A stretch of 64,000 bases of DNA from Candidatus Uhrbacteria bacterium CG_4_9_14_3_um_filter_41_35 (GCA_002791275.1 PFWT01000009.1:8797-72796), one strand, 5' to 3'. Positions 2,890 through 36,236 are shown, counted from the first letter of the stretch. Program-made: numbers and translations. Notes: generated from the letters alone by a model not told the origin.

Positions 2890-2896
2890 ATAAAAC

Positions 2897-2926
2897 AAAA
2901 AAATATCAGCAATGATATTTTTTTGT
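2897..2926 (+). terminator. Rho-independent terminator after ABC-F gene
   Basis: 10-bp stem aaaaatatca/tgatattttt with gcaa loop, followed by a T-run. Confidence 0.55.
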
Positions 2927-2981
2927 TTGTTTAACTTCAAATTAATTATTCTGACTAGTGCGGACTAAAACAATTGAATAT

Positions 2982-3010
2982 AAAAAATACGCCCCGGAGG
3001 GCGTATTTTT
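2982..3010. terminator. Bidirectional rho-independent terminator (serves convergent ABC-F and csp genes)
   Basis: Stem tacgccc/gggcgta with a 4-nt loop, flanked by an A-run upstream and a T-run downstream. Confidence 0.6.
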
Positions 3011-3020
3011 AAAGCACCAA

Positions 3021-3218
3021 TTAGATGCGTGTAACGTTTACAGCTCGTGGTCCTTTTTCTGACTCCTCAATGTCGAATGACACTTTGTCATCAACGTTAA
3101 GTTCGTCATAGGTTACATTTACTAGTGAAGAAGAGTGGAAAAATGTATCTCCGCTCTGTCCTTCAACAGTGATGAAACCAAATCCCTTGTCTGTAAGAGT
3201 TTTGATTGTTCCTTCCAT
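3021..3218 (-). CDS. cspA: Cold-shock protein (CspA family, S1-like cold-shock domain)
   Basis: 65 aa. RNP1-like motif KGFGFI and the FFHSS motif typical of CspA-family proteins. Confidence 0.85.
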   Translation of the reverse strand: MEGTIKTLTDKGFGFITVEGQSGDTFFHSSSLVNVTYDELNVDDKVSFDIEESEKGPRAVNVTRI

Positions 3219-3358
3219 AGTATTGGTTAGAAGTGACTTAACTGCAAATTTTGCCTACTTGGAAAATCTACAGACTTTCACTTCGGTTACTTTTCACGGT
3301 ATAAATATACACCAGAACCGCTTTTTTGTCAAGCGGGGCTGTGGTAAGCTTATTTTGT

Positions 3359-3871
3359 ATGCAGATACCAAAACGTAAATCAGAAGAGGATAGACGCAAT
3401 TTGGCTGGTCCTGTTGATAACTATGTTACCAGGGCTAGGCTGGAAGGATGGAAAAAGGAGCTAATAAGGCTTAAAACGGTCGATCACAGGCCAGCGGCCG
3501 AGGAGGTGGCAAGAACCCAAGCAATGGGGGACCTGAGCGAAAATGCCGGTTATCAAGACGCAAAATGGCGTTTAAGAAAGATTAACGCCCGTATCCTCTC
3601 GTTAAATGAAATGATTAAAAATGCTGTAGTGATAGAGACTGGAACAAATCCAGACGGTAGTATAAAAGTCGGTTCAACGGTCATTTTGGAGCAAAATGGT
3701 CAGGAAAATACTTTTATAATTCTGGGAACTTCAGAGTCAAATCCACTGCAGGGGCGGATTTCATATTCCTCACCTCTTGGCTCGCTACTTTTAAATAAAC
3801 ACGCCGGCGATACAGTTCAGGTAAAAACCCTGAATGCAGAAATAAACTATAAAATTTTAAGAGTCAGTTAG
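3359..3871 (+). CDS. greA: Transcription elongation factor GreA
   Basis: N-terminal coiled-coil followed by GDLSENAGYQDAKWR, matching the GreA/GreB signature. Start moved to the internal MQIPKRK Met because the upstream ORF extension lacks homology; the true start is uncertain. Confidence 0.75.
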   Translation: MQIPKRKSEEDRRNLAGPVDNYVTRARLEGWKKELIRLKTVDHRPAAEEVARTQAMGDLSENAGYQDAKWRLRKINARILSLNEMIKNAVVIETGTNPDGSIKVGSTVILEQNGQENTFIILGTSESNPLQGRISYSSPLGSLLLNKHAGDTVQVKTLNAEINYKILRVS

Positions 3872-3875
3872 TATT

Positions 3876-4769
3876 ATGGCAATAAAAAAACAAATTAATT
3901 TATTCAATTCGGTCCAAAAATTTAGAGATGGTTTTATAGCTGGCTGTGAAAAAAATAATATTATTTTAAAACCACTAAAAACCTCACAGCTGATTATACA
4001 TTTAAAAAATACAGAGGCGGGTCATTTTATTTATAATAATGAAGAGATCGATATTGACAGTTCGTACAATTTTATTCAGTTAAGAGGCAAAGAATCTCAG
4101 ATCCCAACACTCCTTGCGATGTACGCGAAAGCCAGAAATATAAAATTTAACGATGAAATCAATACCGAGCACACCATGAATGCGAATAAAATTGCGCAGA
4201 TGATGATGCTCTGGTTATCAGATTTACCTATTCCAGAAACGATTATATGTTCCAGCTATTCATTTAAGGCAAACACAGAATATATTCAAAATAAACTTAA
4301 TTTTCCTGTTGTACTTAAGAAAAATGGCGATAGGGGAACTGAAGTCTGGAAGATTGAATCGTTTACTGAACTTAGTTTGAAGCTTGAAATAACTGATGCA
4401 GTTAAGGAATCATCAAAGACTGAAAAAAAGGTGGAGGTGTATGTAATTCAAGAATATATTCCAAATACTTTTGATTTTCGTGTGGCAATGTTTCAAGGTG
4501 AGGTGCTTAAGATTATTAAAAGAACGTCAAAAGACGGTTTCTATAACAACTGTTCACTCGGAGCGGACTGGGAGTTTTCGGAAATCGAAGCGGAGGAACT
4601 TGCGCTTTCAAAAAAAGCTTGCGAGGTAGCTCGCTTAGACCTTGCTGGAGTCGATTTTGTAAGAACGGAAAATGGCATCAAATTTTTTGAGATAAATCAA
4701 TCACCGCAACTAACAGCTGAATATGCTGAAAAGATTGTGGAGATTATTGATCGGAAGTATTTGGGGTGA
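3876..4769 (+). CDS. RimK-like ATP-grasp family ligase
   Basis: C-terminal ATP-grasp fold motifs (VYVIQEYIP, DFRVAMFQGEVL, GVDFVRTENGIKFFEINQSPQ) resembling RimK/glutathione-synthetase-type ligases. Confidence 0.6.
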   Translation: MAIKKQINLFNSVQKFRDGFIAGCEKNNIILKPLKTSQLIIHLKNTEAGHFIYNNEEIDIDSSYNFIQLRGKESQIPTLLAMYAKARNIKFNDEINTEHTMNANKIAQMMMLWLSDLPIPETIICSSYSFKANTEYIQNKLNFPVVLKKNGDRGTEVWKIESFTELSLKLEITDAVKESSKTEKKVEVYVIQEYIPNTFDFRVAMFQGEVLKIIKRTSKDGFYNNCSLGADWEFSEIEAEELALSKKACEVARLDLAGVDFVRTENGIKFFEINQSPQLTAEYAEKIVEIIDRKYLG

Positions 4770-4837
4770 TTCGTTTTGAATATGACTTAGAGCGGGGAGT
4801 GATTTTTCTCCCGCCGCCCTTTGTTATTCACAAAACC

Positions 4838-5014
4838 CGTCATTCTGAGGTGAACGTGGATCGTACCGAGGAATCTTATTGCCTCGTCATTCAGAGCCTA
4901 ACGTGAATCACGGCGAAGAATCTCAGTGTTGAATTACAGCGTAAACAAGTTTCTGTTTAGTAAAGAGCGAAGGAGATCCTTCAGCGTAATCTGGCGCTCG
5001 CTTCAGGATGACGG
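4838..5014. repeat. MITE-like composite repeat unit (locus A, copy 1: two head modules + body + tail)
   Basis: Begins CCGTCATTCTGAGGTGAACGTGGA and ends CTTCAGGATGACGG, an imperfect 14-bp terminal inverted repeat with 2 mismatches. Near-identical units recur at 23388-23560 and 36363-36950. Confidence 0.8.
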
Positions 5015-5079
5015 TATGGGTAAAGGGCGACTAATTAAAACAACGAAATAAAAAAAACACATCGCATTATCAAAACCAA

Positions 5080-5133
5080 ACCGTCATTCTGAGGTGAACG
5101 TGAACTACACCGAAGAATCTTAGTGCTGGATTA
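5080..5133. repeat. Partial head module of the same repeat family (locus A, copy 2), abutting the stop of the convergent ATP-grasp gene
   Basis: CCGTCATTCTGAGGTGAACGTGAACTACACCGAAGAATCT matches the head consensus. It is preceded by the conserved linker TATGGGTAAAGGGCGACTAATTAAAACAACG...AAAACCAAA. Confidence 0.7.
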
Positions 5134-6090
5134 CTTAGTCAGGTGTTCTAGTATTTTTTTCAAAACGTTCCTTGTTTTTCCGTAGGTTGGGTTGTAGTGA
5201 ATGAAATAATCTGGCTTGCCGTTAACTTCAAGTAGGTTGAATGTTCCCTTGGTTGGCTTGAGTGAAATATCTTCGCAAATAATGTCGATACCGATCAAAT
5301 TTTTACCAACAGCTTCGGTAGTTCTAACGCAGATTTTTTTTACATCTTCGTGTATTAAATCTGTAATATCTTTCGTTTCGCCACCTTCTGCGATACAGGA
5401 ATTCCCTTTAATATAAATAACCTCACCAGTTTTTGGAACGTTTGACAGCTTATAATTTTGCGAAGCAAGCATTTGTCTTAATAATTTGTCGAACTTTGTT
5501 TTACGTTTCGTTTCTTTTTGCTTGACCCTTATTAAGGTTTTAATATTTAAAATTCCATCACCAATAATATTCGGATGAATCATTTCAAGTCCAGCAATAA
5601 TTTCATTTTCGAGCACTAAGATTCTATATTCTTTACCACTAACCATTTCTTGCGCAACTAAACTGTCAAACCTTTTAATTTTTTGTTTTACAACCGCTAG
5701 CGCATCCTGGGGATTTTTGATATTAAGAACAATTCCAAGACTATTTGAACCTGTGGCGTCCTTAACAATGATCGGATAATGTAGTTTTTTTAGTTTCTTA
5801 AGAGCGGTGACTTTACTAAAACTACTTCTGTAAAAGCTCATTGTCTGTGGGGTTGGTAGATTTGATTTTTTTAAAAGTGTGTAGGTTAAATCCTTACATT
5901 TTGTTGTAGCAACGGTTGAGTAGGCGTTTTTTGGGATAGCAATATGGTACTCAAGAAACAGTTCTTGGTTATTGTACTCAACTAAATGACAGTCTCTTTC
6001 TTTTACAAAATTGGATATTTTTCCACCCGCTTTCGATATTACGCTCTGCATAATATCGAATTTACTATTCGTTGCTATTTTTTTAAACAT
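5131..6090 (-). CDS. ATP-grasp family protein (cyanophycin-synthetase/RimK-like fold), function unknown
   Basis: ATP-grasp-like motifs (KEYRILVLENEIIAG, GIDIICEDIS, LLEVNGKPD). Convergent with the RimK-like gene across the repeat locus. Confidence 0.5.
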   Translation of the reverse strand: MFKKIATNSKFDIMQSVISKAGGKISNFVKERDCHLVEYNNQELFLEYHIAIPKNAYSTVATTKCKDLTYTLLKKSNLPTPQTMSFYRSSFSKVTALKKLKKLHYPIIVKDATGSNSLGIVLNIKNPQDALAVVKQKIKRFDSLVAQEMVSGKEYRILVLENEIIAGLEMIHPNIIGDGILNIKTLIRVKQKETKRKTKFDKLLRQMLASQNYKLSNVPKTGEVIYIKGNSCIAEGGETKDITDLIHEDVKKICVRTTEAVGKNLIGIDIICEDISLKPTKGTFNLLEVNGKPDYFIHYNPTYGKTRNVLKKILEHLTK

Positions 6091-6252
6091 AATAGAAAAC
6101 TAGCAGAAAAATTAGCAAAAGTCAATTAATTTATAAAATAAATAATAGAGTCTAGTCTCTATTATTTATTTCTAGTTCCGAATTTAAATTCAAATTCCTT
6201 TCAGCACTCGTTATTTTTTTGAGTCTGTTGAACTAATGTGTCGAAAACTAAA

Positions 6253-6672
6253 TTAGCTAATTTCTTTTATAATTTCCAGAGTGCCGTCTTGAATATGTTT
6301 AAAACGGTCGTTATAAAGTGGGGTACCACCGAACCATCTTGTTACGACGATAACTACGTTGATTAAATTAGCTTTCCGAATCACTCTCAAAATTATCATC
6401 CCAGCTCCAGCTTCGCCATCGTCTGATTTTAACTCAATGACCTTGTTGTTAATTTTAAACTTTGCTGCAAAGCTGTTGTGGCTAGCCTGACGATAATGTT
6501 TATCTGCTTTTAGTTTCTTTAAAAACTTTTTGAGATCATCTTCATTTTCAACTAGGGAAGCGGTTACACTATATTTTGATCCGCGATCAATAATGATTTG
6601 ATGTAGTTGTAAGTAGTTTACTTTTGGTGGTTTTTCCAAATTCAAAAAAAAGCCGATTTGATCTGTATTCAT
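6253..6672 (-). CDS. IMPACT/YigZ family protein (UPF0029 N-terminal domain)
   Basis: Motifs DRGSKYS, SDDGEAGAGMIIL and VVTRWFGGTPL are characteristic of the YigZ/IMPACT N-terminal domain. Confidence 0.6.
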   Translation of the reverse strand: MNTDQIGFFLNLEKPPKVNYLQLHQIIIDRGSKYSVTASLVENEDDLKKFLKKLKADKHYRQASHNSFAAKFKINNKVIELKSDDGEAGAGMIILRVIRKANLINVVIVVTRWFGGTPLYNDRFKHIQDGTLEIIKEIS

Positions 6673-6673
6673 A

Positions 6674-7303
6674 TTATTTTTTCAGGTAGATGTAGATGAG
6701 TCCTGAAAGTACGGCAGAGAATAAACACCAAACGGAATAGGAAGCGTAGTTAAAAAATACCCAAGCAACCCCGGCGGAGATGAGGATTAGTAGGCCGAAG
6801 AATTTTATTCGTTTATCCGAGGCCACAAACATACTGCCGACCACCGCAGTGACGTAGATCAAAACACCAGTTGTGCGTAGATCGGTAATTGCTCCATAAA
6901 CAACATGGTGTTCAATTGCCTCGATGAACAGTTGACTGGTTGCTAGGGACAAGATACCGCCTAGTGTTGTTAAGAACCCTAAAAGTGCTAAGCCCTTGAG
7001 GATTTTTTTAGAATTTTTGTTTGTTTCCACACTGTAAACAGCAAGTGGAATGTAGGTTGGCCAAACCAGGAAAGCAAAGAATAGAAAGCCGTAGCCAAAA
7101 CATGCGTTTACTTCACCGGCATTTAAAAACAACCACTGCGAGCCTTCCAAAAACTGCTGGATTCCAAACATTATTGGAATAGCCGCAATCATTCTTTTAT
7201 CTTTTGCTGAATTTCGTAAGGTTATAGCTCCGGTTCCGAGGAGCCCAGCACTACTTATAAAACTAACAGGGGCAGAAAAACACATAATATTTATATTATA
7301 CAT
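6674..7303 (-). CDS. Hypothetical polytopic membrane protein
   Basis: About 6 predicted hydrophobic helices. No recognisable catalytic motif. Confidence 0.4.
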   Translation of the reverse strand: MYNINIMCFSAPVSFISSAGLLGTGAITLRNSAKDKRMIAAIPIMFGIQQFLEGSQWLFLNAGEVNACFGYGFLFFAFLVWPTYIPLAVYSVETNKNSKKILKGLALLGFLTTLGGILSLATSQLFIEAIEHHVVYGAITDLRTTGVLIYVTAVVGSMFVASDKRIKFFGLLILISAGVAWVFFNYASYSVWCLFSAVLSGLIYIYLKK

Positions 7304-18529: not shown

Positions 18530-18919
18530 CTAACTGAACATTTTGTCAATTTGGAAGGGGAAGATCTGGTTTGAAAACAGGTAGTAGATGAGTAAGAGAT
18601 GAACTAAAATTAACAGCCAAGCAATTAGTTGAAACTTACTTTTACTTGTTTTATGATGAAAAAAATTCATACTAAGAACAGCTCCCACAAGTCCGCCAAG
18701 GAGAATAGTGAAATATAAAATTTTTTCAGGAACTCGACGTTTACCTATTTTAGCTAAATATTTATCCAGGCCAAATAGTAAAAATGCTCCAATGTTTAAA
18801 GAGAGATAATAATTGTATAGAGGCGGGATGGCAAAATTTACGAATATTATAACAAAACTCACCAAACAAAAAATTAGCCAAACAATAAGGGAAGTTGAAT
18901 AAGGACTATTTTTTCTCAT
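18530..18919 (-). CDS. DUF1294 family membrane protein
   Basis: LFGLDKYLAKIGKRRVPEKIL...LLGGLVGAVLSMNFFHHKTSK matches the DUF1294 signature. Confidence 0.65.
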   Translation of the reverse strand: MRKNSPYSTSLIVWLIFCLVSFVIIFVNFAIPPLYNYYLSLNIGAFLLFGLDKYLAKIGKRRVPEKILYFTILLGGLVGAVLSMNFFHHKTSKSKFQLIAWLLILVHLLLIYYLFSNQIFPFQIDKMFS

Positions 18920-18957
18920 AGTGTAGGTGAGGGCTTGACTTATTTTACATGTTGAAC

Positions 18958-18985
18958 TACTATATCAATACAAATTGATATAGTA
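18958..18985. promoter_or_regulatory. 28-bp palindromic operator (12-4-12) abutting the arsR-family start codon
   Basis: TACTATATCAAT acaa ATTGATATAGTA with perfect 12-bp arms. A near-identical site lies upstream of gdhA at 28315-28342. Confidence 0.6.
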
Positions 18986-19248
18986 TGGACGAAAAAATTA
19001 TTATATTTACGAAAGCCTTGGCAGACCCAACAAGGCTAAAAATCCTAAATAGACTAAAACGCGAATGTTGCGTTGGGGAACTTTGGGAGAAATTAAGTTT
19101 ACCACAAAACCTAGTTTCACATCATTTACGGGTTTTGAAAGAGGCGGAATTAATTACCTCGGAAAAAAGAGGTATGAGGGTCGTTTATCGATTAAACGAT
19201 AAGTCAATCTTAAAAAACGTAAAAAATTTAGAAAAATATTTAACATAA
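18985..19248 (+). CDS. ArsR/SmtB family transcriptional regulator
   Basis: 87 aa winged-HTH protein (LKILNRLKRECCVGELWEKLSLPQNLVSHHLRVLKEAELI). Confidence 0.7.
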   Translation: MDEKIIIFTKALADPTRLKILNRLKRECCVGELWEKLSLPQNLVSHHLRVLKEAELITSEKRGMRVVYRLNDKSILKNVKNLEKYLT

Positions 19249-19252
19249 AAAT

Positions 19253-19588
19253 ATGAGCAAAGTAATTACACTCACAGATGCAACTTTTGAAGCTGAGGTT
19301 TTAAATTCAGAACTTCCGGTTTTGGTGGATTTTTGGGCACCATGGTGTGGTCCTTGTAGAATGATGGCGCCAGTTCTTGATGAACTTTCACTGGCTTTTG
19401 ACGGCAAATTAAAAATCGCTAAGCTCGACGTTGAAAATCCCGCTCACCAGGGGTTAGCGTCCACGTACCGAATTCAGTCAATTCCAGCACTTAAACTGTT
19501 CAAAGGTGGGCAAGTGGTTAAGGAATACCTAGGTTACAGAGAGAAAGCGATGCTGGGGGCTGAACTTGTTCAAGAATTAGATATTTAA
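19253..19588 (+). CDS. trxA: Thioredoxin
   Basis: WAPWCGPC active site. 111 aa. Confidence 0.9.
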   Translation: MSKVITLTDATFEAEVLNSELPVLVDFWAPWCGPCRMMAPVLDELSLAFDGKLKIAKLDVENPAHQGLASTYRIQSIPALKLFKGGQVVKEYLGYREKAMLGAELVQELDI

Positions 19589-19595
19589 ATAAGTT

Positions 19596-20873
19596 ATGGA
19601 AATCCAGTATATAAAATCGGCCGAGGAATTTGAACAGATAAAGAAAGAGAATGAGTTTTTGGTGGTTGATTTTTTCTCAGAAGACTGCCCGCCATGCGAA
19701 AAGCTCGCGCCTATTTACGAAAAAATGGCAACAATTTTTCCCACTGTAAAATTTACAAAGATCTTTAGACAAGGTTTGCGGCCACTTGCAGAATTACTTG
19801 GCGTGAGTGGTTCGCCAACCGTAGTTTTTTTTAAGTCGGGAGCTATACAAGAGGAGCGTTTGTCTGGTGAAATTAAAGAGAATGATCTTGTTTTTATTCT
19901 CGAAAAATTATCTGGTGCATCTGCTGAAGAAATTAAAACTGAAGATGGGGTGCGAAAAACGGATCTTTGCATTATCGGAAACGGTCCGGCTGGAATCACG
20001 GCTGCGATCTACGCAGCTAGATATAAAGTTGATCAGATTATGGTAGGTGATCTTGCTGGTGGACTAATGACCTCATCGCATAAAATTTGTAATTTCCCCT
20101 CACAGACTGAGATTTCAGGTATGGAACTTAGTCAGATGATGGCAGATCAGGTAAACGCACTTGAAGTTCCGCAAATTAATGCGCGAATTTCAAAAGTGGA
20201 AAAAAATTCAACGGGTTATTTACTTGAAACTACAAATGGTGATCAGATTCAGACAAAAACAGTTTTGTTAACTGCTGGCACAAAACATCGTCACCTTGGT
20301 TTACCAAACGAGGAAGATTTAGTCGGTCGCGGCGTTTCTTACTGCGCTACTTGCGACGGAGCTTTCTTTAATAACAAAACGGTTGCTGTTATTGGTGGTA
20401 GCGATACGGCAAATACTGCTTCGCTTTACTTAGCTCAAGTTGCTAACAAAGTTTATCAGGTTTACCGAAAAGGAGCTTTACGTGGGGAAACAGCTTGGAT
20501 AGATCAGATTAAAGAAAACAATAAAATTCAGGTTATCTATAACACTGAGGTGATTGGTTTGTCGGGTGAAAATCAACTCGAAGGTGTTGTGCTGAGCACT
20601 CCATTTGAAGGAAATACAGTACTTAAAGTTGACGGCGCCTTTGTGGAAATTGGCTCGGAGCCAGATTTAAGTCTAATTAATCAGTTAGGTTTGGCAACGG
20701 ACGAGGGCAATTATGTGATTACAGCTAAAGACCAGACAACGAATCAGTCAGGTGTTTGGGCAGCGGGTGATATAACAAACGGTTCAAATAATTTCCGTCA
20801 GATTATCACGGCCTGTTCGGAAGGCGCGATAGCTGCGCAAAATATCTTTGAGTATTTACAACGAAAAAAATAA
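19596..20873 (+). CDS. trxB: Thioredoxin-like domain (CPPC) fused N-terminally to a low-Mr thioredoxin-disulfide reductase
   Basis: N-terminal ~110 aa Trx-fold with a CPPC redox motif (FFSEDCPPCEK). TrxR portion has the FAD site CIIGNGPAGITAAIYAARY, redox-active CATCDGAFF, a Rossmann GGSDTANTAS and GDITNG. Confidence 0.8.
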   Translation: MEIQYIKSAEEFEQIKKENEFLVVDFFSEDCPPCEKLAPIYEKMATIFPTVKFTKIFRQGLRPLAELLGVSGSPTVVFFKSGAIQEERLSGEIKENDLVFILEKLSGASAEEIKTEDGVRKTDLCIIGNGPAGITAAIYAARYKVDQIMVGDLAGGLMTSSHKICNFPSQTEISGMELSQMMADQVNALEVPQINARISKVEKNSTGYLLETTNGDQIQTKTVLLTAGTKHRHLGLPNEEDLVGRGVSYCATCDGAFFNNKTVAVIGGSDTANTASLYLAQVANKVYQVYRKGALRGETAWIDQIKENNKIQVIYNTEVIGLSGENQLEGVVLSTPFEGNTVLKVDGAFVEIGSEPDLSLINQLGLATDEGNYVITAKDQTTNQSGVWAAGDITNGSNNFRQIITACSEGAIAAQNIFEYLQRKK

Positions 20874-20882
20874 AAGAAAAAA

Positions 20883-20910
20883 TAAACACGAAAGTGTTTA
20901 TTTTTTTATT
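20883..20910. terminator. Bidirectional rho-independent terminator
   Basis: aaacac/gtgttt stem, gaaa loop, then an 8-T run. Confidence 0.55.
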
Positions 20911-21509
20911 CAGCTGAAGTCTTGAACTAATATTTCTCGAGCCTGTTTTAGAGCCTTGCCTCGGTGACTGACTAAAGTTTTTTCAGCAATCGACATTTCT
21001 GCATTGGTTTTTTTGAGCTCACTGTTATAAAAAACCGGGTCAAAGCCAAAGCCTTCGGTGCCTCGGGGCTCATCAATAATCGAACCTCGGTAAATACCTT
21101 CGCAAGTTCTGATTTTTTTACTGATTGGATCGTAAATAGCAATTACCGCTCTAAACTGCGCCCCGCGATTTTCAGACAAAACACCGGTTAGTTCACCAAG
21201 CAGTTTATTATACCTATCTGCATCTGTCCCCGGAGCGTACCGCGCTGAAAAAACACCCGGTCGACCGTTCAAAGCATCAACCTCAAGCCCAGCGTCTTCC
21301 GACAAAGTTAGTAAACCAGTTTTGTCACCATAAGTAATGGCTTTGATAATTGCGTTTCCTTCCATTGTCATTGCTGGCTCTTCAACGTCGAAGTCTGGAG
21401 AAATGGCGGTATCTGCTAAACCAATAATCTCCCAATCAAAGTCTGCGAGTGCGTGCTGTATTTCCACGATCTTTCCTTTATTTCGCGTAGCTATCACCAG
21501 TTTTTGCAT
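20910..21509 (-). CDS. rdgB: Non-canonical purine NTP pyrophosphatase (RdgB/Ham1 family)
   Basis: N-terminal ATRNKGKIVE and C-terminal FGFDPVF motifs of the Ham1 family. Confidence 0.85.
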   Translation of the reverse strand: MQKLVIATRNKGKIVEIQHALADFDWEIIGLADTAISPDFDVEEPAMTMEGNAIIKAITYGDKTGLLTLSEDAGLEVDALNGRPGVFSARYAPGTDADRYNKLLGELTGVLSENRGAQFRAVIAIYDPISKKIRTCEGIYRGSIIDEPRGTEGFGFDPVFYNSELKKTNAEMSIAEKTLVSHRGKALKQAREILVQDFS

Positions 21510-21544
21510 AAGATATGTGTTCTTTAAAGATCTTAAATTTTAGT

Positions 21545-22213
21545 TTAATTCAAGATTTTTGTAACTTCATCTTCGGTTAGGTATTGCGCTGAATAATTGG
21601 CTCCGCGCATATTAAGTTGCTTCGTAAACGCACGCAGGTGATTTTCCGAACCGGCTATTAAATATGAATAGACCCGAAGGATGTCAGCGTTCTGTGTGTC
21701 TGCCGATAAATTTTGTAGGTCGTAGATATCTAAGTCCTCAATAGTAGCGCCAACAGTAAAGGCATCAACCAGGCTAGTGCTTCCTTTTTGCACTAACTGA
21801 TTGTAAAGATCGGTAAAGGCTGGATTTTGATAAACTCCTGGGGTTTCAGTTTGAATTGGATCGGGAATATTGAACTGCACTAAAAGATTTTTTATCGCCG
21901 TGGTGTGCGACTGTTCACTGCTTGAAATATTGATAAAGGTTTTTTGTTCCCATTTATCAAAAAGTGCATTGTAAACATCGCGCGCTAGCATTTCTTCTTC
22001 CCGCATTCTTATAAGCCCAGTAATCTCCGCTTCAGATAGCTGACCGCTAACTGGTACAGTAACTTGTGCAACTACCGGCTGGCTAACAGATGTGGCTTGC
22101 TCAGTATAGCTAACTTGATCGTCTTTTTCGTAAGTTTTAAATAGTACGATCAAGGTGAGGGTAATTAGGATAAGGAGGCCAAGGGCCATAGCTGGTTGGT
22201 ATATTTCTTTCAT
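21545..22213 (-). CDS. DUF2202 ferritin-like domain protein with N-terminal TM anchor
   Basis: EEEMLARDVYNALFDKW...SSEQSHTTAIKNLL resembles the DUF2202 ferritin-like family. Start set at MKEIYQ (the ORF could extend to 22327). Confidence 0.5.
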   Translation of the reverse strand: MKEIYQPAMALGLLILITLTLIVLFKTYEKDDQVSYTEQATSVSQPVVAQVTVPVSGQLSEAEITGLIRMREEEMLARDVYNALFDKWEQKTFINISSSEQSHTTAIKNLLVQFNIPDPIQTETPGVYQNPAFTDLYNQLVQKGSTSLVDAFTVGATIEDLDIYDLQNLSADTQNADILRVYSYLIAGSENHLRAFTKQLNMRGANYSAQYLTEDEVTKILN

Positions 22214-22407
22214 ATAATTGGTTATATCTATAATACAACGATTTTCAATAAATAATTCAATTTTTCCACATGATACAGATATTTTGGTCGAGGTACGCCC
22301 CACGTGTGATAATTTTGATATTGACAATTAATAAAATATCCTTTAGTCTAACCGTCTTATTCACATATTCCTGTGTTTTAAGACAACTGCTTGAATGCGG
22401 AGGAAAA

Positions 22408-23259
22408 ATGCTTCACAGACTATTCGCGGTGTCTAGTGTGTTGCCGATCGCTGATCCGGGGAGCTTAGCTCTCGTACCTATCAAAGGGTCAGAGAACCTG
22501 TACGTGGACTCGAGTTCTTTTTGCAATAACGAGGGCGATGCTATTCAAGTTATCGTTGAAGAGACTAATCTTGGCCTTGTGTTTAGACTACCGAGAGAAG
22601 CAGGATCTGTGCTACGAAATGTCCCACGCTCAGTTAAGAAGGCTATTCGCTACTGGCACGCAAGCTTAGTGGTTGAGGATCCAGATTTTGTTGATCAAAA
22701 CAAGATCGAAACTATGATCCATCCAAAGGGTCATACGGGCATTAAGGTCACAGTGTCGTATGATTCGGTCACTTTTCTTATTCGTGCACAGTCAGAACGA
22801 AAGGCACGGTTCCTTACAGAGCAGTGTTTACTAAATAAAGTAGAATATAGACTGCTTTATAACCGTCTTGAAGAGTTTGAAGCAAAGGCAAGCAAAACCT
22901 GGTCTAATAATCTAGCAAAAGATGCTAATCAATTGTGTCTGGCGTTAAATAGATGGACAAACGGACAGACTATCTACACAAAGTATTTCCCGGAGCTCAT
23001 TCAAACCCCGAACGGTGCACTGATCCAAACCGCCTACAAACATGAGGAATTGCTACTCGCAACAGTTTTGTATCAAGGAGAACCGTTAACTGTAATGTTT
23101 GGTCCAAGAGATTTTCGAACACAGTTTCTAAATATGGTCCTTTGTGGCTATTTAAAACAAGTCAGGCTAACCTCCGTTCAGGAGAAACTACTAAAGCGAT
23201 TGCTGGACGCTCTCTTTGCTAAGCAGTTTTTAGACAGAAGAAAAGAGCAGAGCCTGTAG
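22408..23259 (+). CDS. Hypothetical protein, no recognisable domain; compositionally GC-rich
   Basis: Long ORF with coding-like codon periodicity. GC about 48-50% against the background. Start inferred at MLHRLF. Confidence 0.4.
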   Translation: MLHRLFAVSSVLPIADPGSLALVPIKGSENLYVDSSSFCNNEGDAIQVIVEETNLGLVFRLPREAGSVLRNVPRSVKKAIRYWHASLVVEDPDFVDQNKIETMIHPKGHTGIKVTVSYDSVTFLIRAQSERKARFLTEQCLLNKVEYRLLYNRLEEFEAKASKTWSNNLAKDANQLCLALNRWTNGQTIYTKYFPELIQTPNGALIQTAYKHEELLLATVLYQGEPLTVMFGPRDFRTQFLNMVLCGYLKQVRLTSVQEKLLKRLLDALFAKQFLDRRKEQSL

Positions 23260-23304
23260 GTAAAAAGATAAATTCAAGGACGTGAGCAATCATTAGCCAA
23301 ATGT

Positions 23305-23328
23305 ACGACCGACAACGGTCGTTTTTTA
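23305..23328 (+). terminator. Rho-independent terminator
   Basis: acgaccg/cggtcgt stem, acaa loop, 6-T run. Confidence 0.65.
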
Positions 23329-23387
23329 TTTACGTATTAGGTTTTGGTCTTTTAAAATATTGACCAAGTTAGATGACGTACACTAAA

Positions 23388-23560
23388 CCGTTATTCTGAG
23401 CCTAACGTGAATTATGGCGGAAATCTCATCATCTCGTCATTCTGAGCCAAACGTGAATCACGGCGAAGAATCTTATTACTGGATTACTAAGCAAATGTCG
23501 GTTATACACAAAACGAAGGAGATCCTTCAGCATGAATCAGCGCCAACTTCTGGGTGATAA
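23388..23560. repeat. MITE-like composite repeat (locus B: two head modules + degenerate body/tail)
   Basis: CCGTTATTCTGAGCCTAACGTGAAT and CGTCATTCTGAGCCAAACGTGAATCACGGCGAAGAATCT heads, followed by the body segment ...AAGGAGATCCTTCAGC as at loci A and C. Confidence 0.7.
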
Positions 23561-23698
23561 AAATGTAGGTGAGTTGTCCACTATTACCCTTGACTGGGGG
23601 CTTGAAATAGCCTAACTTAAATATATAGCTTAAAGAATTCGCTGGATCCATTTTGGGAAAAGCGTCTTTTTTTATACAAACTTTTACCACCAAAAACT

Positions 23699-25837
23699 AT
23701 GCTCAACACTTTAAAAACTAACTTTGGCTACGATTCGTTTAGGCCTCTTCAGAAAGAGATTATTGACCACGTTGCCGGGAGAAATGACGCGCTAGTTTTG
23801 ATGCCAACAGGTGGTGGTAAGTCGCTCTGTTACCAACTGCCAGCGCTACTGTTTCCAGGTATAACTATCGTTGTTTCACCGCTCATTTCGCTTATGAAAG
23901 ATCAGGTGGATGCGCTAAAGGCAAACGGCATTTCAGCCGAGTTTTTAAACAGCACTCTGTCGCCAGAAGTTATCGAAGTTATTCAGGAAAGAGCCGTTCG
24001 CGGAGATATTAAACTCCTCTACATCGCCCCTGAAAGATTAGCGAACCCCTCATTTCGCCACTTTCTTTCTAGTCTGAACGTAAGCCTTATTGCTGTCGAC
24101 GAAGCGCACTGTATTTCGGAGTGGGGCCACGATTTTCGTCCAGATTATCGAAACTTCGGTGCTCTCCGCGAACTTTTTAAAGATGTGCCAGTTATTGCCC
24201 TAACCGCCACGGCAACTAAAAGAGTCAGGTTCGATATTTTAAATCAACTTGGTTTAAAAGAAGATCAAACATTTATTTCCAGCTTCAACCGGCCAAATTT
24301 ACAGTACGGAGTGGAGCCAAAGTACAAAACTTTTGATCAGCTCGTTACACTCTTAAATAAATATAAAGGTGAGCCAACGATTATATATTGTTTTTCAAGA
24401 AAACAAACTGAACAATTGGCCAGTGATCTCCGCAGTGCTGGTTATAGTGCCAAACCATATCACGCCGGGCTTTCGAAAGACGCTCGTCAAGAAACTCAGG
24501 AGCAGTTTATTACCGACGAAGTGCCAATTATCATCGCAACAATTGCCTTCGGTATGGGAATCGACAAACCAGATGTTCGTTTGGTGGTGCATTATGATTT
24601 ACCAAAAACGCTCGAATCCTACTATCAGGAAACAGGGCGTGCAGGCAGGGACGGTTTGCCGGCAGAGTGTGTTTTGTTTTACTCACTTGGAGATAAGCGC
24701 AAGCAGGATTACTTTATTAATATGATGGCAAACGCGGAGGAGCAGGAAAATGCTCGGCAGAAACTGGGGCAGGTAATTGAGTATTGCAACCTCGGTGTGT
24801 GTAGACGCAAGTATATTTTAGGTTATTTTGACGAATTGGTGAGTGAAAACAGCTGCGCAAACTGCGACAACTGCCTGGCTCCAGCTCATGATCACAATAT
24901 CACCGCACTCGCTCAAAGTATTATCCGCGCGGTTATTGAAACAGGTGAGCGTTTTGGCGCTGGCCATGTGATTAAGGTATTAAGAGGTTCAAAAACTAAA
25001 CGGCTCGAAGATTTTGGCCACAACGCACTTTCAACGTTTGGGCTTGAAAAGAAAACTTCAGAAGCAGAACTAAAACACGCTGTTGATCAACTTATTAAGC
25101 AGGGTATTGTCAAAAAAGACACTGGCGAATATCCAACTCTAAGTATCGACAGCGAAGGTCGGAATCTGCTGCAAAGCGGGGCACAGATTTATATTCAAAA
25201 GCCAAAGACGGAAATGCTTAAACTCAGCACCCCGCAGGTAGCGGATCTAGAATATAGCACTGAGCTATTTGAAAGCTTAAGAAACCTTAGGAAACAAGTT
25301 GCCGATCAAAAATCAGTTCCACCTTTTGTGATTTTTGGCAATAAATCGCTAATAGAAATGGCGCATTATTTGCCAAAAAATAGGGAAGAGTTTGCTAAAA
25401 TTTCAGGGGTAGGGAATCAAAAACTCGAGCAGTTTGCGGACATTTTTACAGAACTTATCCAGACTTATGCCATTCAAAACAACTTAGAAAGTAAGGCGAT
25501 CCCCACCCGAGCCAAAGCCGAACAAAAACGTTTGGTCAGCAGAGAAGGCTCTACCTACGCAGAAACTAAACGGTTAATTGATCAAAAACTAACACTTCAG
25601 GAAATCGCTAATGAGCGGAATATCAAAGAGGGGACAGTTATTAGCCATATTGAACAGCTGGTTATCTCGGACAGCGACCTAGATATAACCTACTTAAAAC
25701 CAGTAGAAAGTCGGCTAAAACCAATCTTGGCAGCTTTCTATAAATCTGGCCAAACAAGCTTATCACCAGTCCGCAGTCTGCTTGGCGATACATACTCATT
25801 CGACGAAATTCGCCTGGCTAGGTTATTTTTAGGGTAA
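23699..25837 (+). CDS. recQ: ATP-dependent DNA helicase RecQ
   Basis: Q-motif/Walker A LMPTGGGKSLCYQLPAL, DEAH box VDEAHCISEWGHDFRPDY, zinc-binding Cys cluster (CRRK...CANCDNC) and a C-terminal HRDC-like region. Confidence 0.9.
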   Translation: MLNTLKTNFGYDSFRPLQKEIIDHVAGRNDALVLMPTGGGKSLCYQLPALLFPGITIVVSPLISLMKDQVDALKANGISAEFLNSTLSPEVIEVIQERAVRGDIKLLYIAPERLANPSFRHFLSSLNVSLIAVDEAHCISEWGHDFRPDYRNFGALRELFKDVPVIALTATATKRVRFDILNQLGLKEDQTFISSFNRPNLQYGVEPKYKTFDQLVTLLNKYKGEPTIIYCFSRKQTEQLASDLRSAGYSAKPYHAGLSKDARQETQEQFITDEVPIIIATIAFGMGIDKPDVRLVVHYDLPKTLESYYQETGRAGRDGLPAECVLFYSLGDKRKQDYFINMMANAEEQENARQKLGQVIEYCNLGVCRRKYILGYFDELVSENSCANCDNCLAPAHDHNITALAQSIIRAVIETGERFGAGHVIKVLRGSKTKRLEDFGHNALSTFGLEKKTSEAELKHAVDQLIKQGIVKKDTGEYPTLSIDSEGRNLLQSGAQIYIQKPKTEMLKLSTPQVADLEYSTELFESLRNLRKQVADQKSVPPFVIFGNKSLIEMAHYLPKNREEFAKISGVGNQKLEQFADIFTELIQTYAIQNNLESKAIPTRAKAEQKRLVSREGSTYAETKRLIDQKLTLQEIANERNIKEGTVISHIEQLVISDSDLDITYLKPVESRLKPILAAFYKSGQTSLSPVRSLLGDTYSFDEIRLARLFLG

Positions 25838-25939
25838 GCTAAAATAGCTCAAGTTAGGGGTAAAACATTGTTTTAGAAAACACTTGATCATATTTTCTGT
25901 TTATGTTATCCTGTGCTCACAATTAAATGAGCAAAACAT

Positions 25940-26014
25940 TCGGGGGTAGCTCAGCGGCAGAGCAGGAGACTGTTAATCTCTTGGTCGTGGGTTCGATCCC
26001 CACCCCCCGAGCCA
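25940..26014 (+). tRNA. tRNA-Asn (anticodon GTT)
   Basis: Cloverleaf folded by hand: acceptor TCGGGGG/CCCCCGA, D-arm GCTC...GAGC, anticodon loop CTGTTAA (U33, GUU, A37), T-arm GTGGG-TTCGATC-CCCAC, encoded CCA. Confidence 0.8.
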
Positions 26015-26017
26015 ATA

Positions 26018-26046
26018 AAAAAACACCCTTTGGGTGGTTTTTTATT
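26018..26046 (+). terminator. Rho-independent terminator after tRNA
   Basis: caccc/gggtg stem followed by a T-run. Confidence 0.5.
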
Positions 26047-26248
26047 GGCATCAACTTGGCGATTTATAAGAGCATAATATACAATGTCACAAGTAACGAC
26101 TTGACCCCTATTTCATACCAAAAGAAATTGCAAGTCATCTTAATTTACACTACTTTACAATTAGTAAAATAATTGCAAATTCAAGATTCAAGATCAAGAC
26201 CTGACCCCTAAGTAATAGAAAAATCACGAACTAGAATTAGTTCGTGAT

Positions 26249-26848
26249 TTGTTTTATAGTGTAAGTAAAATTAGCTTTGCTTTTATGAGAGAAAAAATGG
26301 GTTATAATCCAGAAGGTCAAAGGGCGCAATTGGAGATGTCGCTTGATGAAAAGAAGGTCTATGAACAGATGCAGAGTGAGGTTTCGGCGCTTAGAGTGGA
26401 TTTATTAGTAAATTTGCCAAGAAAAAAACGACTTCATATAGAAAGACGACTTCGACTCTTGGAATCGAAACTGAAAATGTTAGAAGATGGCGATTTTGGT
26501 CGTACAATTCCGGAGGTTATTTTGAAGGATGTTATTGAGCGAGATACGGGCCGTAATTTTGGGCGCCCAAGTCATAGTTGTGAAAGACCTGGTCCACCTC
26601 ATCACATACGTTTTTTCGAAACATTTACGGGTAATCAAACACGGGAAAACCCACATACTGTCGATAATTTAGAAGCGCCCTGCAAGGAGTGTCATGAATT
26701 GGCCCATAATTTAAGTATACCTAGCGGTGTCTCAATTGAAACATTATTCAAATCATTTAATGATAGCAAGTGGCAGACGATTGAAGAGCTTTGGCATAAT
26801 AAAAACACTTTTCAACTAAAGAAAATCGGGCAGTCGTACAGTCTGTAA
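26249..26848 (+). CDS. Hypothetical protein with N-terminal coiled coil and C-terminal Cys/His cluster (possible HNH-like zinc finger)
   Basis: C-terminal HSCERPGPPHH...PCKECHELAHN motif. The true start may be the internal MREKMGYNPEG. Confidence 0.35.
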   Translation: MFYSVSKISFAFMREKMGYNPEGQRAQLEMSLDEKKVYEQMQSEVSALRVDLLVNLPRKKRLHIERRLRLLESKLKMLEDGDFGRTIPEVILKDVIERDTGRNFGRPSHSCERPGPPHHIRFFETFTGNQTRENPHTVDNLEAPCKECHELAHNLSIPSGVSIETLFKSFNDSKWQTIEELWHNKNTFQLKKIGQSYSL

Positions 26849-26931
26849 AAACTGTGCCGTAAATCAAGTTACGACTCGCTGTTTTTAGATAAAATCAATC
26901 TCGTAGCATAGCTATATCCATTCTATAAAAT

Positions 26932-27159
26932 ATGAACAGTCAAAATATAATCCCACAGCCAAACGATCCTTTGCACGGCATCACTCTTAAAGTAATCCTT
27001 GAGGCTTTGGTTGAGAAGTATGGGTGGCAAGAGCTCGGTCAAATGATACGAATAAAATGTTTTAATGAAAATCCAAGTATTAATTCCAGTTTAACTTTTC
27101 TACGCAAAACACCTTGGGCTCGCGAAAAAATCGAGGATTTATATCTCAGCAGTGTTTAA
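26932..27159 (+). CDS. DUF2132 (VF530-like) small protein
   Basis: [29 protein letters not shown]...[17 protein letters not shown] resembles the DUF2132 family. Confidence 0.5.
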
Positions 27160-27197
27160 ATATTTAGAAGCATTTTACATATTTTTACCAAATAAAT

Positions 27198-27719
27198 ATG
27201 CCACGTAAAAATCCTATTACGGTTGAAGTTACGGATAAGTTTCAGAAAAAATATACATACGAATTAGTGGAACCGATTGGTAGGAATTTTGATGTAGACT
27301 TTCAGCCAGATCTAACACCAAAACAAATGTTAGCTTTGGGAATTTTTGGTGGTAAATATATGACTGATTGCAAAAAGGAGTATCCTGAAAATTGGTTTAC
27401 AAAAGCAAAATTATCGCCTAAAAAACATAATGATACTTTGAATTATTTTCACATCCATGCAAGTCAGTCGCTTGGTGTTTGGCTGGAAAAAGGTTGGATA
27501 AATGAAAAACACGATCCACGAGGTTGGTTTCAGTGGTATTGCAGATACTATATGGGCCGAAGACTTCAGGTGGAAGATGACAGGCAAATAAAGCGTTGGA
27601 AAGCTATGAAACGCCACGTTGCTCAAATTAGGAAGAACTGTAAAAAAGGTGATCTTGCTTGTAGAACGAAACAACGTCAGGCACTTCTGCATTGGGGTTA
27701 TAATAGTTTAGAAATGTGA
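27198..27719 (+). CDS. Hypothetical protein
   Basis: 173 aa ORF with W/Y/R-rich GWFQWYCRYYMGRR motif. No family recognised. Confidence 0.4.
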   Translation: MPRKNPITVEVTDKFQKKYTYELVEPIGRNFDVDFQPDLTPKQMLALGIFGGKYMTDCKKEYPENWFTKAKLSPKKHNDTLNYFHIHASQSLGVWLEKGWINEKHDPRGWFQWYCRYYMGRRLQVEDDRQIKRWKAMKRHVAQIRKNCKKGDLACRTKQRQALLHWGYNSLEM

Positions 27720-27800
27720 AAATTTGGTTTATTTAAAGTATTAAAAATATAACACCCATCGATATTTACCGATGGGTTAGAATTAGGACGAAAGTGATAA

Positions 27801-27998
27801 CTAAGTTTTCGCCTTATTGTCCTTACGCGATACCAGCAGAATGAAGAGCACACCCATTGACCAGTAGAGGATGACGATGTAGGCCAAGAACCAGACGCCG
27901 ATCTGCTCGCTTCGGGACAAGAGAGTGATCAGTCCGACTGGTGGGTTCACGTACAGGGTTACGAAATGGGTGAAATCGAAAACACTTTTTGGAGTCAT
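27801..27998 (-). CDS. Small hypothetical membrane protein (65 aa from MTPKSVFDF)
   Basis: Two hydrophobic helices. GC-rich relative to surroundings. Start chosen at the internal Met with better context. Confidence 0.3.
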   Translation of the reverse strand: MTPKSVFDFTHFVTLYVNPPVGLITLLSRSEQIGVWFLAYIVILYWSMGVLFILLVSRKDNKAKT

Positions 27999-28314
27999 TT
28001 TTGACCTCCTTGCTAGTAATATTTTTGCATACATTAGCCATTTTGTCAATCGTATTAGTAAAGTCAATGTCTGATCAAGAAAAAATCAAAACCTCTATAA
28101 CGAGGTTTTTAATGATTTAAATTCAGATTAGTTAGTTATCAGTAGCAAATTTTCAGACTCACTTTTAGCCTCTATGAAGAGTTAATTATTTGGAGCGTCA
28201 CACGTTAGTAATCGAAACAATTAGATTTTTTTGTTTTTTTAGCGGTTTAGTTGGCTTTGATATACGATGTTGTTGGTGATAAACTATCCCCTTGAATGAT
28301 TTTTGAACATAAGA

Positions 28315-28342
28315 TAGTATATCAATATAGATTGATATACTA
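28315..28342. promoter_or_regulatory. 28-bp palindromic operator (12-4-12) upstream of gdhA, same motif as at the arsR operon
   Basis: TAGTATATCAAT atag ATTGATATACTA. It differs from the arsR site only at the central s position and the spacer. Confidence 0.55.
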
Positions 28343-28373: not shown

Positions 28374-29747
<1,374 letters not shown>

Positions 29748-30204: not shown

Positions 30205-30483
30205 AATTAAAAACTCAACTTCGGGTGATCAACCTCGAAGTCGCCGAAGTGGTGGAAACCGAGGTTTTGGTCGAGGTGCTCGATCAGGCGGACCTGGTCG
30301 AAATAAGCCAAGCCACCGAAGAAGTGGTGGCGGTAGAAATGCCGACCGTTCAGGTGGAGCTCGAACTTCAGAGCGACCAGCCGGAGATCGAAGAACAAGC
30401 GGTGGAAATTCAAGTAGCCGACCAGCCGGGCAAAGTGCACCAAGATTTGGTGCTCGCAAGTCAGGAACTGGCGGAGCTCGAAA
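30205..30483 (+). pseudogene. 279-bp duplicated fragment of the DEAD-box helicase 3-prime coding end (RGG tail), no start codon; inverted repeat partner of 40042-40320
   Basis: Identical (1 mismatch) to the reverse complement of 40042-40320. The helicase reading frame is open but preceded by an in-frame TAA with no ATG. Confidence 0.8.
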
Positions 30484-30856
30484 AACTTCTACACCGAGCG
30501 GATGTTCTCGCCTACACCTCACCGGGAGGCATCGAGGTACTCGATGCCTCCCACCCATCTTGGGAGGATTTCGAGCGAAAAATAATAAAAAAAATCCTCA
30601 AACACAACATTATGCGCTTTTTTTGTTTCTTAAAAATTCAGTCATCTTTATCGTCAAAAAAATATCTTGGTATGTGTTACCGCGACTCATGACGTCGTAA
30701 CGGGCACCCAGGTATTTAATATGGAGTGTTCTTACGATACAAATTCATTATAAAAAAACACACCTCTCGACCTGACTCCATTTTTATTGACAAAATACCA
30801 TAGCAGATGTAAGTTAACGCGTTGTAATTTTACAACAGATCAAAAAAGAGGCTCAA

Positions 30857-35803: not shown

Positions 35804-36109
35804 TTATATTTTTTTATCGCGATTAATTTTTGCGTCTCGTGCTCTAGTTACCAAGAAGATAAAGACAATATACGCAACTGCGTAAATTAAGTATTCCGTG
35901 ATTTCAGCCCAATCTTTTCCCTCGAGCAACGTAAAACTTTCGCGCGCAACGTGCCAAAGTCTAGACACTGCAATGAATCCAAGAGTCCAAACGGTCGCTC
36001 GCATAGCGCTATAAGTTAAACCTTTGCGCATTGAGTATTCCGCTGCCACAGTTGCCGCGATTGCAAGAACGGCAGTTAGAACCGAGATTACGAAATAAAA
36101 TGAGAACAT
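35804..36109 (-). CDS. Small hypothetical membrane protein
   Basis: Three hydrophobic helices. Confidence 0.4.
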   Translation of the reverse strand: MFSFYFVISVLTAVLAIAATVAAEYSMRKGLTYSAMRATVWTLGFIAVSRLWHVARESFTLLEGKDWAEITEYLIYAVAYIVFIFLVTRARDAKINRDKKI

Positions 36110-36236
36110 ATATTTATTGAAATTGTTATAGCTTAAGTATACACCGATATTAAATTTATGCGAAGAAGATCAACCCCAGGTTAAGCCTGGGGTTATTATT
36201 TGATTTAATTTGATTTGCAAGTTTTTTATTTATTAT

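Follow-up and report, generated by a model that had tools for sequence, protein, structure and literature searches.

We analysed a stretch of 64,000 nucleotides (nt) from Candidatus Uhrbacteria bacterium CG_4_9_14_3_um_filter_41_35 (GCA_002791275.1, PFWT01000009.1:8797-72796), here called the window, in which two near-identical palindromes, O1 and O2, stand in front of an arsR-thioredoxin-thioredoxin reductase gene cluster and of a gene for glutamate dehydrogenase (GDH), respectively. The host, which we take to be a tiny groundwater bacterium of the Candidate Phyla Radiation (CPR; Uhrbacteria), has a genomic G+C content of about 39%. The features of the two units and their immediate surroundings are as follows:

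18530-18919, minus strand: gene for a DUF1294 membrane protein (PF06961), divergent from arsR
18935-18940, plus strand: -35-like hexamer TTGACT of the arsR-trx-trxR promoter (TTGACT-17-TACTAT)
18958-18985, no strand: candidate operator O1, a 28-bp perfect palindrome TACTATATCAAT-ACAA-ATTGATATAGTA (core 18961-18982)
18985-19248, plus strand: arsR, an 87-amino-acid (aa) winged-helix protein of the ArsR/SmtB family and predicted repressor (HTH_5, NF033788)
19253-19588, plus strand: trx, a thioredoxin with the motif WCGPC (PF00085, 102.8 bits; TIGR01068, 104 bits against a cut-off of 96.8)
19596-20873, plus strand: trxR, a 425-aa fusion of a thioredoxin domain (CPPC) with thioredoxin reductase (PF00085 and PF07992)
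28292-28297, plus strand: -35-like hexamer TTGAAT of the gdhA promoter, 17 nt before TAGTAT
28315-28342, no strand: candidate operator O2, a 28-bp perfect palindrome TAGTATATCAAT-ATAG-ATTGATATACTA (core 28318-28339)
28410-29747, plus strand: gdhA, a 445-aa NADP-specific glutamate dehydrogenase (PF02812 and PF00208; NF006929, 758 bits against a cut-off of 536)

Near-identical 28-bp palindromes of 12-4-12 form had been described at 18958-18985 and 28315-28342 in an initial annotation of this DNA, and both were found exactly there. The final base of O1 is the A of the arsR ATG (18985), and O2 ends 67 nt before the gdhA ATG (28410), a distance that the initial annotation had put at 69 bp. The core shared by the two sites, TATATCAAT-N4-ATTGATATA, has only these two exact matches in the window, while an estimate from base composition gives about 2e-5 exact cores per 64 kb. 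Even when up to three mismatches are allowed, only one extra match appears; dinucleotide shuffles lead to an expectation of 0.10 at this tolerance, and none of 100 shuffles gave three matches. The half-site TATATCAAT (9 nt) occurs four times in the 64 kb against 0.92 expected, each time within O1 or O2. The extra match at 36109-36130 (TATATTTATTGAAATTGTTATA) is a weak operator-like sequence with three mismatches that has lost CAAT in one arm, and it adjoins the ATG of a 101-aa minus-strand open reading frame (ORF; 35804-36109) that has no Pfam match. It is the only other match in the window with up to four mismatches, and as a candidate third operator it was set aside as probably due to chance.

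The 87-aa protein scores 50.8 bits against PF01022 (HTH_5; cut-off 22) and 90.2 bits against NF033788 (cut-off 55), which places it in the ArsR/SmtB family with a winged helix-turn-helix of the HTH_5 type. Its nearest solved structures are ArsR 8qkf and SmtB, its recognition helix reads PQNLVSHHLRVLK, and it is the product of the only ArsR-like ORF in the window. Because the gaps between arsR and trx and between trx and trxR measure only 4 and 7 nt, the three genes form one operon. In the fusion protein at its end, the thioredoxin reductase model TIGR01292 spans residues 123-421 with 285 bits, where 343 would be needed for a full-length match. An NCBI protein of Candidatus Uhrbacteria bacterium CG_4_10_14_0_2_um_filter has the same sequence as GdhA (100% identity).

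Both palindromes begin exactly 17 bp downstream of their -35-like hexamers, a feature absent from the initial annotation. Owing to this spacing their left arms can be read as -10 elements, namely TACTAT (18958-18963) in O1 and TAGTAT (28315-28320) in O2. An alignment of 12 promoter-operators shows TTGA to be invariant at the -35 position, and likewise TA-TATATCAATA...ATTGATATA. Of 69 distinct ArsR-adjacent sites, 31 match TTGACA in at least four of six positions, exactly 17 nt 5' of the -10. No Shine-Dalgarno sequence lies between O1 and the arsR ATG, which is normal for this organism, because Shine-Dalgarno-like 4-mers are rare in the window and precede only 5 of its 38 long ORFs.

Three observations concern the same promoter region. 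The ATG of arsR genes in Patescibacteria often stands 2 nt past the operator core (18983-18987 in the window; also L002, L003, L006, L053, L117, L110, L010 and L072, where L### labels denote loci or contigs of relatives or of scanned genomes), and the predicted mRNA leader of such genes would be about 12-16 nt long, without a Shine-Dalgarno sequence. A third half-site, ATTGATAT, which is not present at O1 or O2, was seen in L216 (1092-1106) as well as in L101, L096, L040, L079, L125 and L115; it lies at an offset of exactly 15 nt from the start of the right arm, in overlap with the first gene's start codon, and its recurrence hints at binding of a second dimer or at cooperative binding. Finally, the DUF1294 gene starts 41 nt from the O1 core. 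O1 was considered as its divergent promoter and rejected, as the minus strand has no -35-like hexamer at the matching distance and this gene is not a conserved neighbour of arsR among relatives.

The promoter-operator is retained in front of orthologous arsR genes. Orthologues of the 87-aa protein on L001-L009 share 62-66% identity with it, and in every one of these loci TTGACT, 17 nt and TA[C/G]TATATCAAT-N4-ATTGATATACT stand immediately 5' of the ATG. In a wider set from other Patescibacteria (47-66% identity; L001-L009, L016, L053, L096, L101, L117 and L216), TTGAC(N)-17-TA(N)TATATCAAT-N4-ATTGATATA adjoins the ATG in every orthologous locus fetched, while the 17-nt spacer and the flanking DNA have diverged. 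The conservation that had been proposed as a check at trx operons is borne out for the arsR orthologues fetched. In the window, O1 overlaps the -10 and abuts the ATG, so that an inverted-repeat operator lies at the regulator's own promoter; together with the tight spacing of the operon, this footprint supports the autoregulation of arsR-trx-trxR predicted earlier.

A scan for the exact 22-bp core in one genome per GTDB species gave at least 119 loci in other species. Among the 119 matches listed, 64 have an ArsR-family ORF that starts within 200 nt of the motif, and a further eight loci carry a clear ArsR-like ORF elsewhere in the fetched stretch (e.g. permease-then-arsR operons, Campylobacterota). 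The listed hosts comprise Patescibacteria, Proteobacteria, Desulfobacterota, Spirochaetota, Actinomycetota, Nitrosopumilus and a nanoarchaeon; examples from the scan loci L010-L128 are L115 6134 (Nitrosopumilus), L105 4256 (Nanoarchaeota), L052, L085 and L097 (Spirochaetota), and L020 and L092 (Pseudomonadales). Many of the Patescibacteria sites have a -35 exactly 17 nt upstream. The ArsR proteins beside the motif belong to several sensor classes, including CVC, CAC, ECCVG and proteins of about 305 aa that resemble methyltransferase fusions. They have in common the recognition helix Q[N/S]xxSHHLK, which takes the form QNLxSHHLK in most members from Patescibacteria and in a few others. Because 64 of the 119 listed matches abut ArsR-family genes, the motif is predicted to be a general ArsR-type operator and not noise, in agreement with the earlier view that a 12-4-12 repeat, which here precedes every fetched orthologous arsR, fits an ArsR/SmtB operator. 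Across the motif-linked ArsRs, conservation appears to be far stronger in the operator than at the sensor sites.

The initial annotation had further proposed that gdhA is coupled to the thioredoxin system, and this finds support in three independent lines of sequence evidence from relatives. The nearest relative of GdhA (P0101, 89% identity) is encoded on L209, a locus from a different sample, where TTGAAG, 17 nt and TAGTATATCAATATGTATTGATATACT lie 30 nt before the gdhA ATG. Positions 28291-28341 of the window match L209 1556-1606, and this 51-nt promoter-operator block is the only conserved non-coding DNA upstream of gdhA; the length of the gdhA leader and the neighbouring genes differ between the two loci. 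L209 carries a gene for an IS200-type Y1 transposase (47-889) about 750 nt upstream of its operator-gdhA unit. Because the window has unrelated genes in that place, the promoter-gdhA unit appears to have changed its neighbourhood.

In L216/L217, gdhA is part of the operon itself: the gene order is Trx-TrxR fusion, Trx, ArsR, GdhA, with gaps of 5-10 nt and a terminator after gdhA. GdhA is 76% identical there, and the ArsR, at 47% identity, still has the ECCVG motif (ECCVGD). The promoter of this operon reads TTGACA, 17 nt, TAGTATATCAATACAAATTGATATAGT, and its core equals that of O1, spacer included. A further arrangement is seen in L220 (GdhA 76% identical), where the operon order is gdhA, trx, trxR. 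Moreover, a Trx-TrxR gene in L038 has its own TTGACT-17-TAATATATCAAT... operator with no arsR adjacent, so that the operator seems able to act away from arsR. The same operator therefore lies at two or more promoters and recurs in relatives (O1 and O2, L209, L038 and L216/L217), as would be expected of a regulon, and operon fusions occur in L216/L217 and L220. That the genes are arranged in three different ways speaks for selection on co-expression and not for inherited gene order. None of the remaining 88 GdhA loci inspected has a gene for ArsR, Trx or TrxR close by. Conservation at orthologous gdhA, a check proposed earlier, is seen in L209 but not in more distant GdhA loci, and the coupling of gdhA with the thioredoxin system, although real, occurs in only a few lineages of Patescibacteria. 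As a separate observation, L210-L213 contain a lone half-site, TAGTATATCAA, at about 3406-3416 between a P-type ATPase gene and an ORF-gdhA operon; it has no second arm and, being only half a site, was not counted as an operator.

What could the regulator sense? The only cysteines of the ArsR are C28 and C29, an unusual vicinal pair in the sequence ECCVGELW of helix α3. They align with ELCVGDL of SmtB, where classical ArsR has ELCVCDL, and occupy the α3 position of SmtB C61 and ArsR C32; ligands in α5 are absent. ECCVG is kept in every orthologue. Among the 150 best matches from a search of 1.84 billion cluster representatives, it occurs in only 3. Nearly every lineage with an ECCVG-type ArsR and visible downstream genes has TrxR as cargo, usually together with Trx, and relatives often carry a YgaP-like transmembrane protein beside arsR. 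This constant cargo points to thiol or disulfide stress as the putative signal, and the label "redox" for the signal is a guess. The equivalog models for BigR, TsoR, SdpR, CmtR and Rv2640c were tried on the 87-aa protein, and all scored under their cut-offs. The persulfide-sensing BigR/SqrR/YgaV subfamily was rejected on two counts: NF040642 gives 41.1 bits against a cut-off of 155, and the cysteines are adjacent in α3, with no C-terminal Cys.

We conclude that O1 and O2 are most likely operators of a dimeric ArsR/SmtB-family repressor, which is probably the 87-aa protein itself, and we consider it likely that this shared operator co-regulates arsR-trx-trxR and gdhA. In the model that we propose, an ArsR dimer would bind O1 and O2 and thereby mask the -10 and the expected start of transcription at two sigma-70-type promoters. 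Bound ArsR would keep RNA polymerase off both, one promoter driving arsR-trx-trxR (autoregulation) and the other driving gdhA. A signal that modifies Cys28-Cys29, for which thiol oxidation or disulfide stress, persulfide or a thiophilic metalloid are candidates, would free ArsR and switch on both units together. The output would be NADPH-dependent disulfide reduction by Trx and the Trx-TrxR fusion, plus the NADP-glutamate dehydrogenase. GDH may work in the oxidative direction (glutamate to 2-oxoglutarate): because TrxR needs NADPH, an NADP-GDH that oxidises glutamate would supply what TrxR consumes. We therefore offer, as a tentative hypothesis to which we give somewhat less than an even chance, that in a small clade of Patescibacteria a minimal vicinal-Cys ArsR co-induces the thioredoxin system and GDH, together forming a regulon dedicated to thiol stress with GDH as its private NADPH generator. 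In all of this, we infer DNA binding, repression, the identity of the signal and the direction of GDH from sequence.

A parallel comes from Thermococcus kodakarensis, in which a proteome study found both TrxR (TK2100) and GDH (TK1431) to be up under oxidative stress; this archaeon has no classical pentose phosphate pathway for NADPH (PMC4473059). By analogy, the joint rise of the two enzymes is a parallel to our model and not a proof of it.

Several points weigh against this interpretation. The classical role of such an NADP-GDH is anabolic, with consumption of NADPH, which would make the logic of supply wrong. The promoter hexamers are matches to a consensus only, and the gdhA promoter scores 8/12, under the threshold of the promoter scan. 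Neither motif nor linkage was found in nine further Patescibacteria loci whose GdhA is 74-77% identical (L210-L215, L218, L219 and L221), nor in 80 metagenome GdhA loci at 60-69% identity, which serve as a negative control but are too distant to test conservation. Our view is also limited to 64 kb, and ArsR paralogues with the same recognition helix could act at gdhA or share its control; CVC-type ArsRs are common in Uhrbacteria and come with the motif (L047 and L093).

Could O2 then be read mainly by another ArsR, such as a CVC-type arsenite sensor encoded outside the window, so that regulation is only partly shared? We regard this as unlikely. The exact motif does precede ArsRs of at least four sensor classes (ECCVG, GE(K/R)CVC, GEKCAC and methyltransferase fusions), most of them with QNLxSHHLK, and some genomes have two nearby ArsRs or two motif sites (L117 and L002; L016 and L096 in the metagenome-assembled genome ELA025). 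In the gdhA-containing operon of L216/L217, however, the ECCVG type is the only regulator, and the window has a single ArsR-like ORF. Moreover, even two paralogues reading one operator would leave the trx operon and gdhA co-regulated.

Equally improbable in our view is an arsenic regulon, in which ArsR would sense As(III) via its Cys pair, Trx and TrxR (arsX/arsT-like) would feed an arsenate reductase, the SBF-type transporter of relatives would be an arsenite pump, and gdhA would be induced by arsenite stress. This idea draws on the fact that other types of ArsR (AfArsR and CgArsR) bind As(III) through vicinal cysteines. In relatives, an SBF/ACR3-like transporter lies between arsR and trx/trxR, and the same operator precedes ArsP-like permeases (assigned from N-terminal sequence) and ArsC (L014, L018, L051, L075, L115 and L121; other phyla). 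ArsT, too, has been reported in ars operons (PMC6205960). On the other hand, the ArsR of the window reads ECCVGEL, with two cysteines in total, in place of the canonical As(III) site ELCVCDL. The SBF-like transporter of relatives scores 91.6 bits against the TIGR00832 cut-off of 282.8 and lacks GxARCxA, NNFE and LNSxxQ. No ArsB or ACR3 was found in the window, and none of its ORFs matches two ArsC queries of the low-molecular-weight protein tyrosine phosphatase (LMW-PTP) type, the Grx type not having been searched. What all lineages share is an operon of ArsR and TrxR, usually with Trx, and no pump. A canonical ars operon was thus rejected on sensor motif, pump and reductase, while arsenite or another thiophile could still act as the signal within the regulon that we propose.

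The transporter and its surroundings were also looked at in their own right. The SBF-family protein of relatives is 346-349 aa long (L003 3394-4443; L101 1442-2488; L117 575-1612; L002 7670-8719). Two cysteines stand in a conserved loop of this protein (QxC...11...C), which does not qualify as a bona fide ACR3 and is missing from the window operon. Just 5' of the orthologous arsR in L002 lies a metal/thiol island (1522-6677) with genes for a second ArsR (104 aa), Thioredoxin_3, an ArsP_1 permease, DsbD_2, a CDF cation-efflux protein, TauE and a chromate transporter.

The palindromes might also act as hairpins, that is as an RNA stem-loop, a terminator or a mobile element of the REP (repetitive extragenic palindrome) or MITE (miniature inverted-repeat transposable element) kind, a view that we hold to be very improbable. 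Each 28-mer folds at -11.3 kcal/mol (z = -7.9 and -4.7), and arm position 3 differs between O1 and O2 in a seemingly compensatory way, with both arms changed (C..G to G..C). In L002 and L003, however, position 3 is C on both arms and the pair is broken, and the -35/-10 geometry puts the start of transcription inside the palindrome, so that the mRNA would not contain the whole stem. The sites have no T-tract, only two copies and no flanking repeat; no Rfam family covers them, a tRNA being the only Rfam hit in the window, and the motif tracks ArsR genes across phyla. We therefore rejected the hairpin in spite of its stable stems. That O1 and O2 are chance AT-rich palindromes without function can be dismissed even more firmly: such palindromes are common in promoters and the genome is AT-rich (about 39% G+C), but only about 2e-5 exact cores are expected per window, or 0.1 in shuffles even at three mismatches, and both sites are kept at orthologous positions in other genomes. 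The hairpin and chance readings are effectively excluded.

Other features of the region lie apart from the two units. Behind a tRNA-Asn gene (25940-26014) stands a short GC hairpin terminator (region 25940-26036), and a perfect palindrome with a 13-bp stem at 26221-26250 reads as a bidirectional terminator. At 30207-30700, where the G+C content is locally higher (0.43), the two strands carry overlapping ORFs, one of which (30225-30692) is acidic, Glu/Val-rich and 155 aa long.

CPR bacteria are mostly uncultured, and to our knowledge almost no defined regulatory circuits or regulons are known in them. Here a regulator, its operator, the geometry of the promoters and two target units are legible in the sequence, and relatives allow all of them to be cross-checked. 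The link between GDH and thioredoxin suggests a route of NADPH to disulfide reduction in organisms with little central metabolism. If our model holds, redox defence in bacteria whose central metabolism is very limited would draw its reductant from glutamate oxidation, and the three arrangements of GDH with Trx/TrxR would reflect selection for an NADPH supply line. In addition, the exact 22-bp motif could be used to call ArsR regulons in metagenome-assembled genomes.

Autoregulation of ArsR proteins through an inverted repeat is textbook knowledge, and the regulator resembles SmtB, CzrA and Bacillus subtilis AseR, autorepressors with inverted-repeat operators of the 12-2-12 type, in being a small winged-helix protein of the HTH_5 type, expected to act as a dimer, with an inverted repeat at the promoter of its own gene. 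As in that group, a ligand at the helix α3 cysteine site is proposed to bring about derepression. In its 22-bp frame and its TATAT/ATATA ends, the AseR operator TATATAACGATTTGCTTATATA agrees with the operator of the window (PMC12607644). Unlike this group, the window has the core half-site TATATCAAT, its candidate sensor is a vicinal Cys-Cys pair without α5 or N-terminal metal ligands, and the predicted output consists of Trx, TrxR and NADP-GDH, not of a metal pump or metallothionein, with a second, remote operator.

A link of an ArsR-type regulator to thioredoxin reductase and thioredoxin is also seen in ars operons with arsT or arsX. ArsT is reported to be frequent in ars operons, with an unresolved function (PMC6205960). 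In contrast to those operons, the window has neither ArsB nor ACR3, no ArsC by the LMW-PTP-type queries, and no canonical As(III) triad.

With the thiol-switch regulators BigR, SqrR and YgaV and the archaeal SurR (CxxC), our ArsR shares the fold and, as proposed, cysteine chemistry as the signal; the YgaP-like transmembrane protein beside arsR in relatives recalls ygaVP. Here, however, the cysteines are adjacent in α3 and form neither an α2/α5 pair nor a CxxC motif, and the operator differs. We know of no GDH in the regulons of BigR, SqrR, YgaV or SurR. Redox and energy genes are under the control of SurR, which responds to sulfur (PMC12162507). For T. kodakarensis, an archaeon, the correlation of TrxR and GDH comes with no described shared operator or operon.

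Our literature search found no paper on the motif or on an ArsR/TrxR/GDH linkage in Patescibacteria (databases of the RegPrecise type lay outside it). Set against the systems above, what appears to be new is a sensor variant whose only candidate site is a pair of vicinal cysteines, a predicted regulon that joins the thioredoxin system to NADP-GDH and is supported by three gene arrangements, and the location of such a regulon in CPR bacteria.

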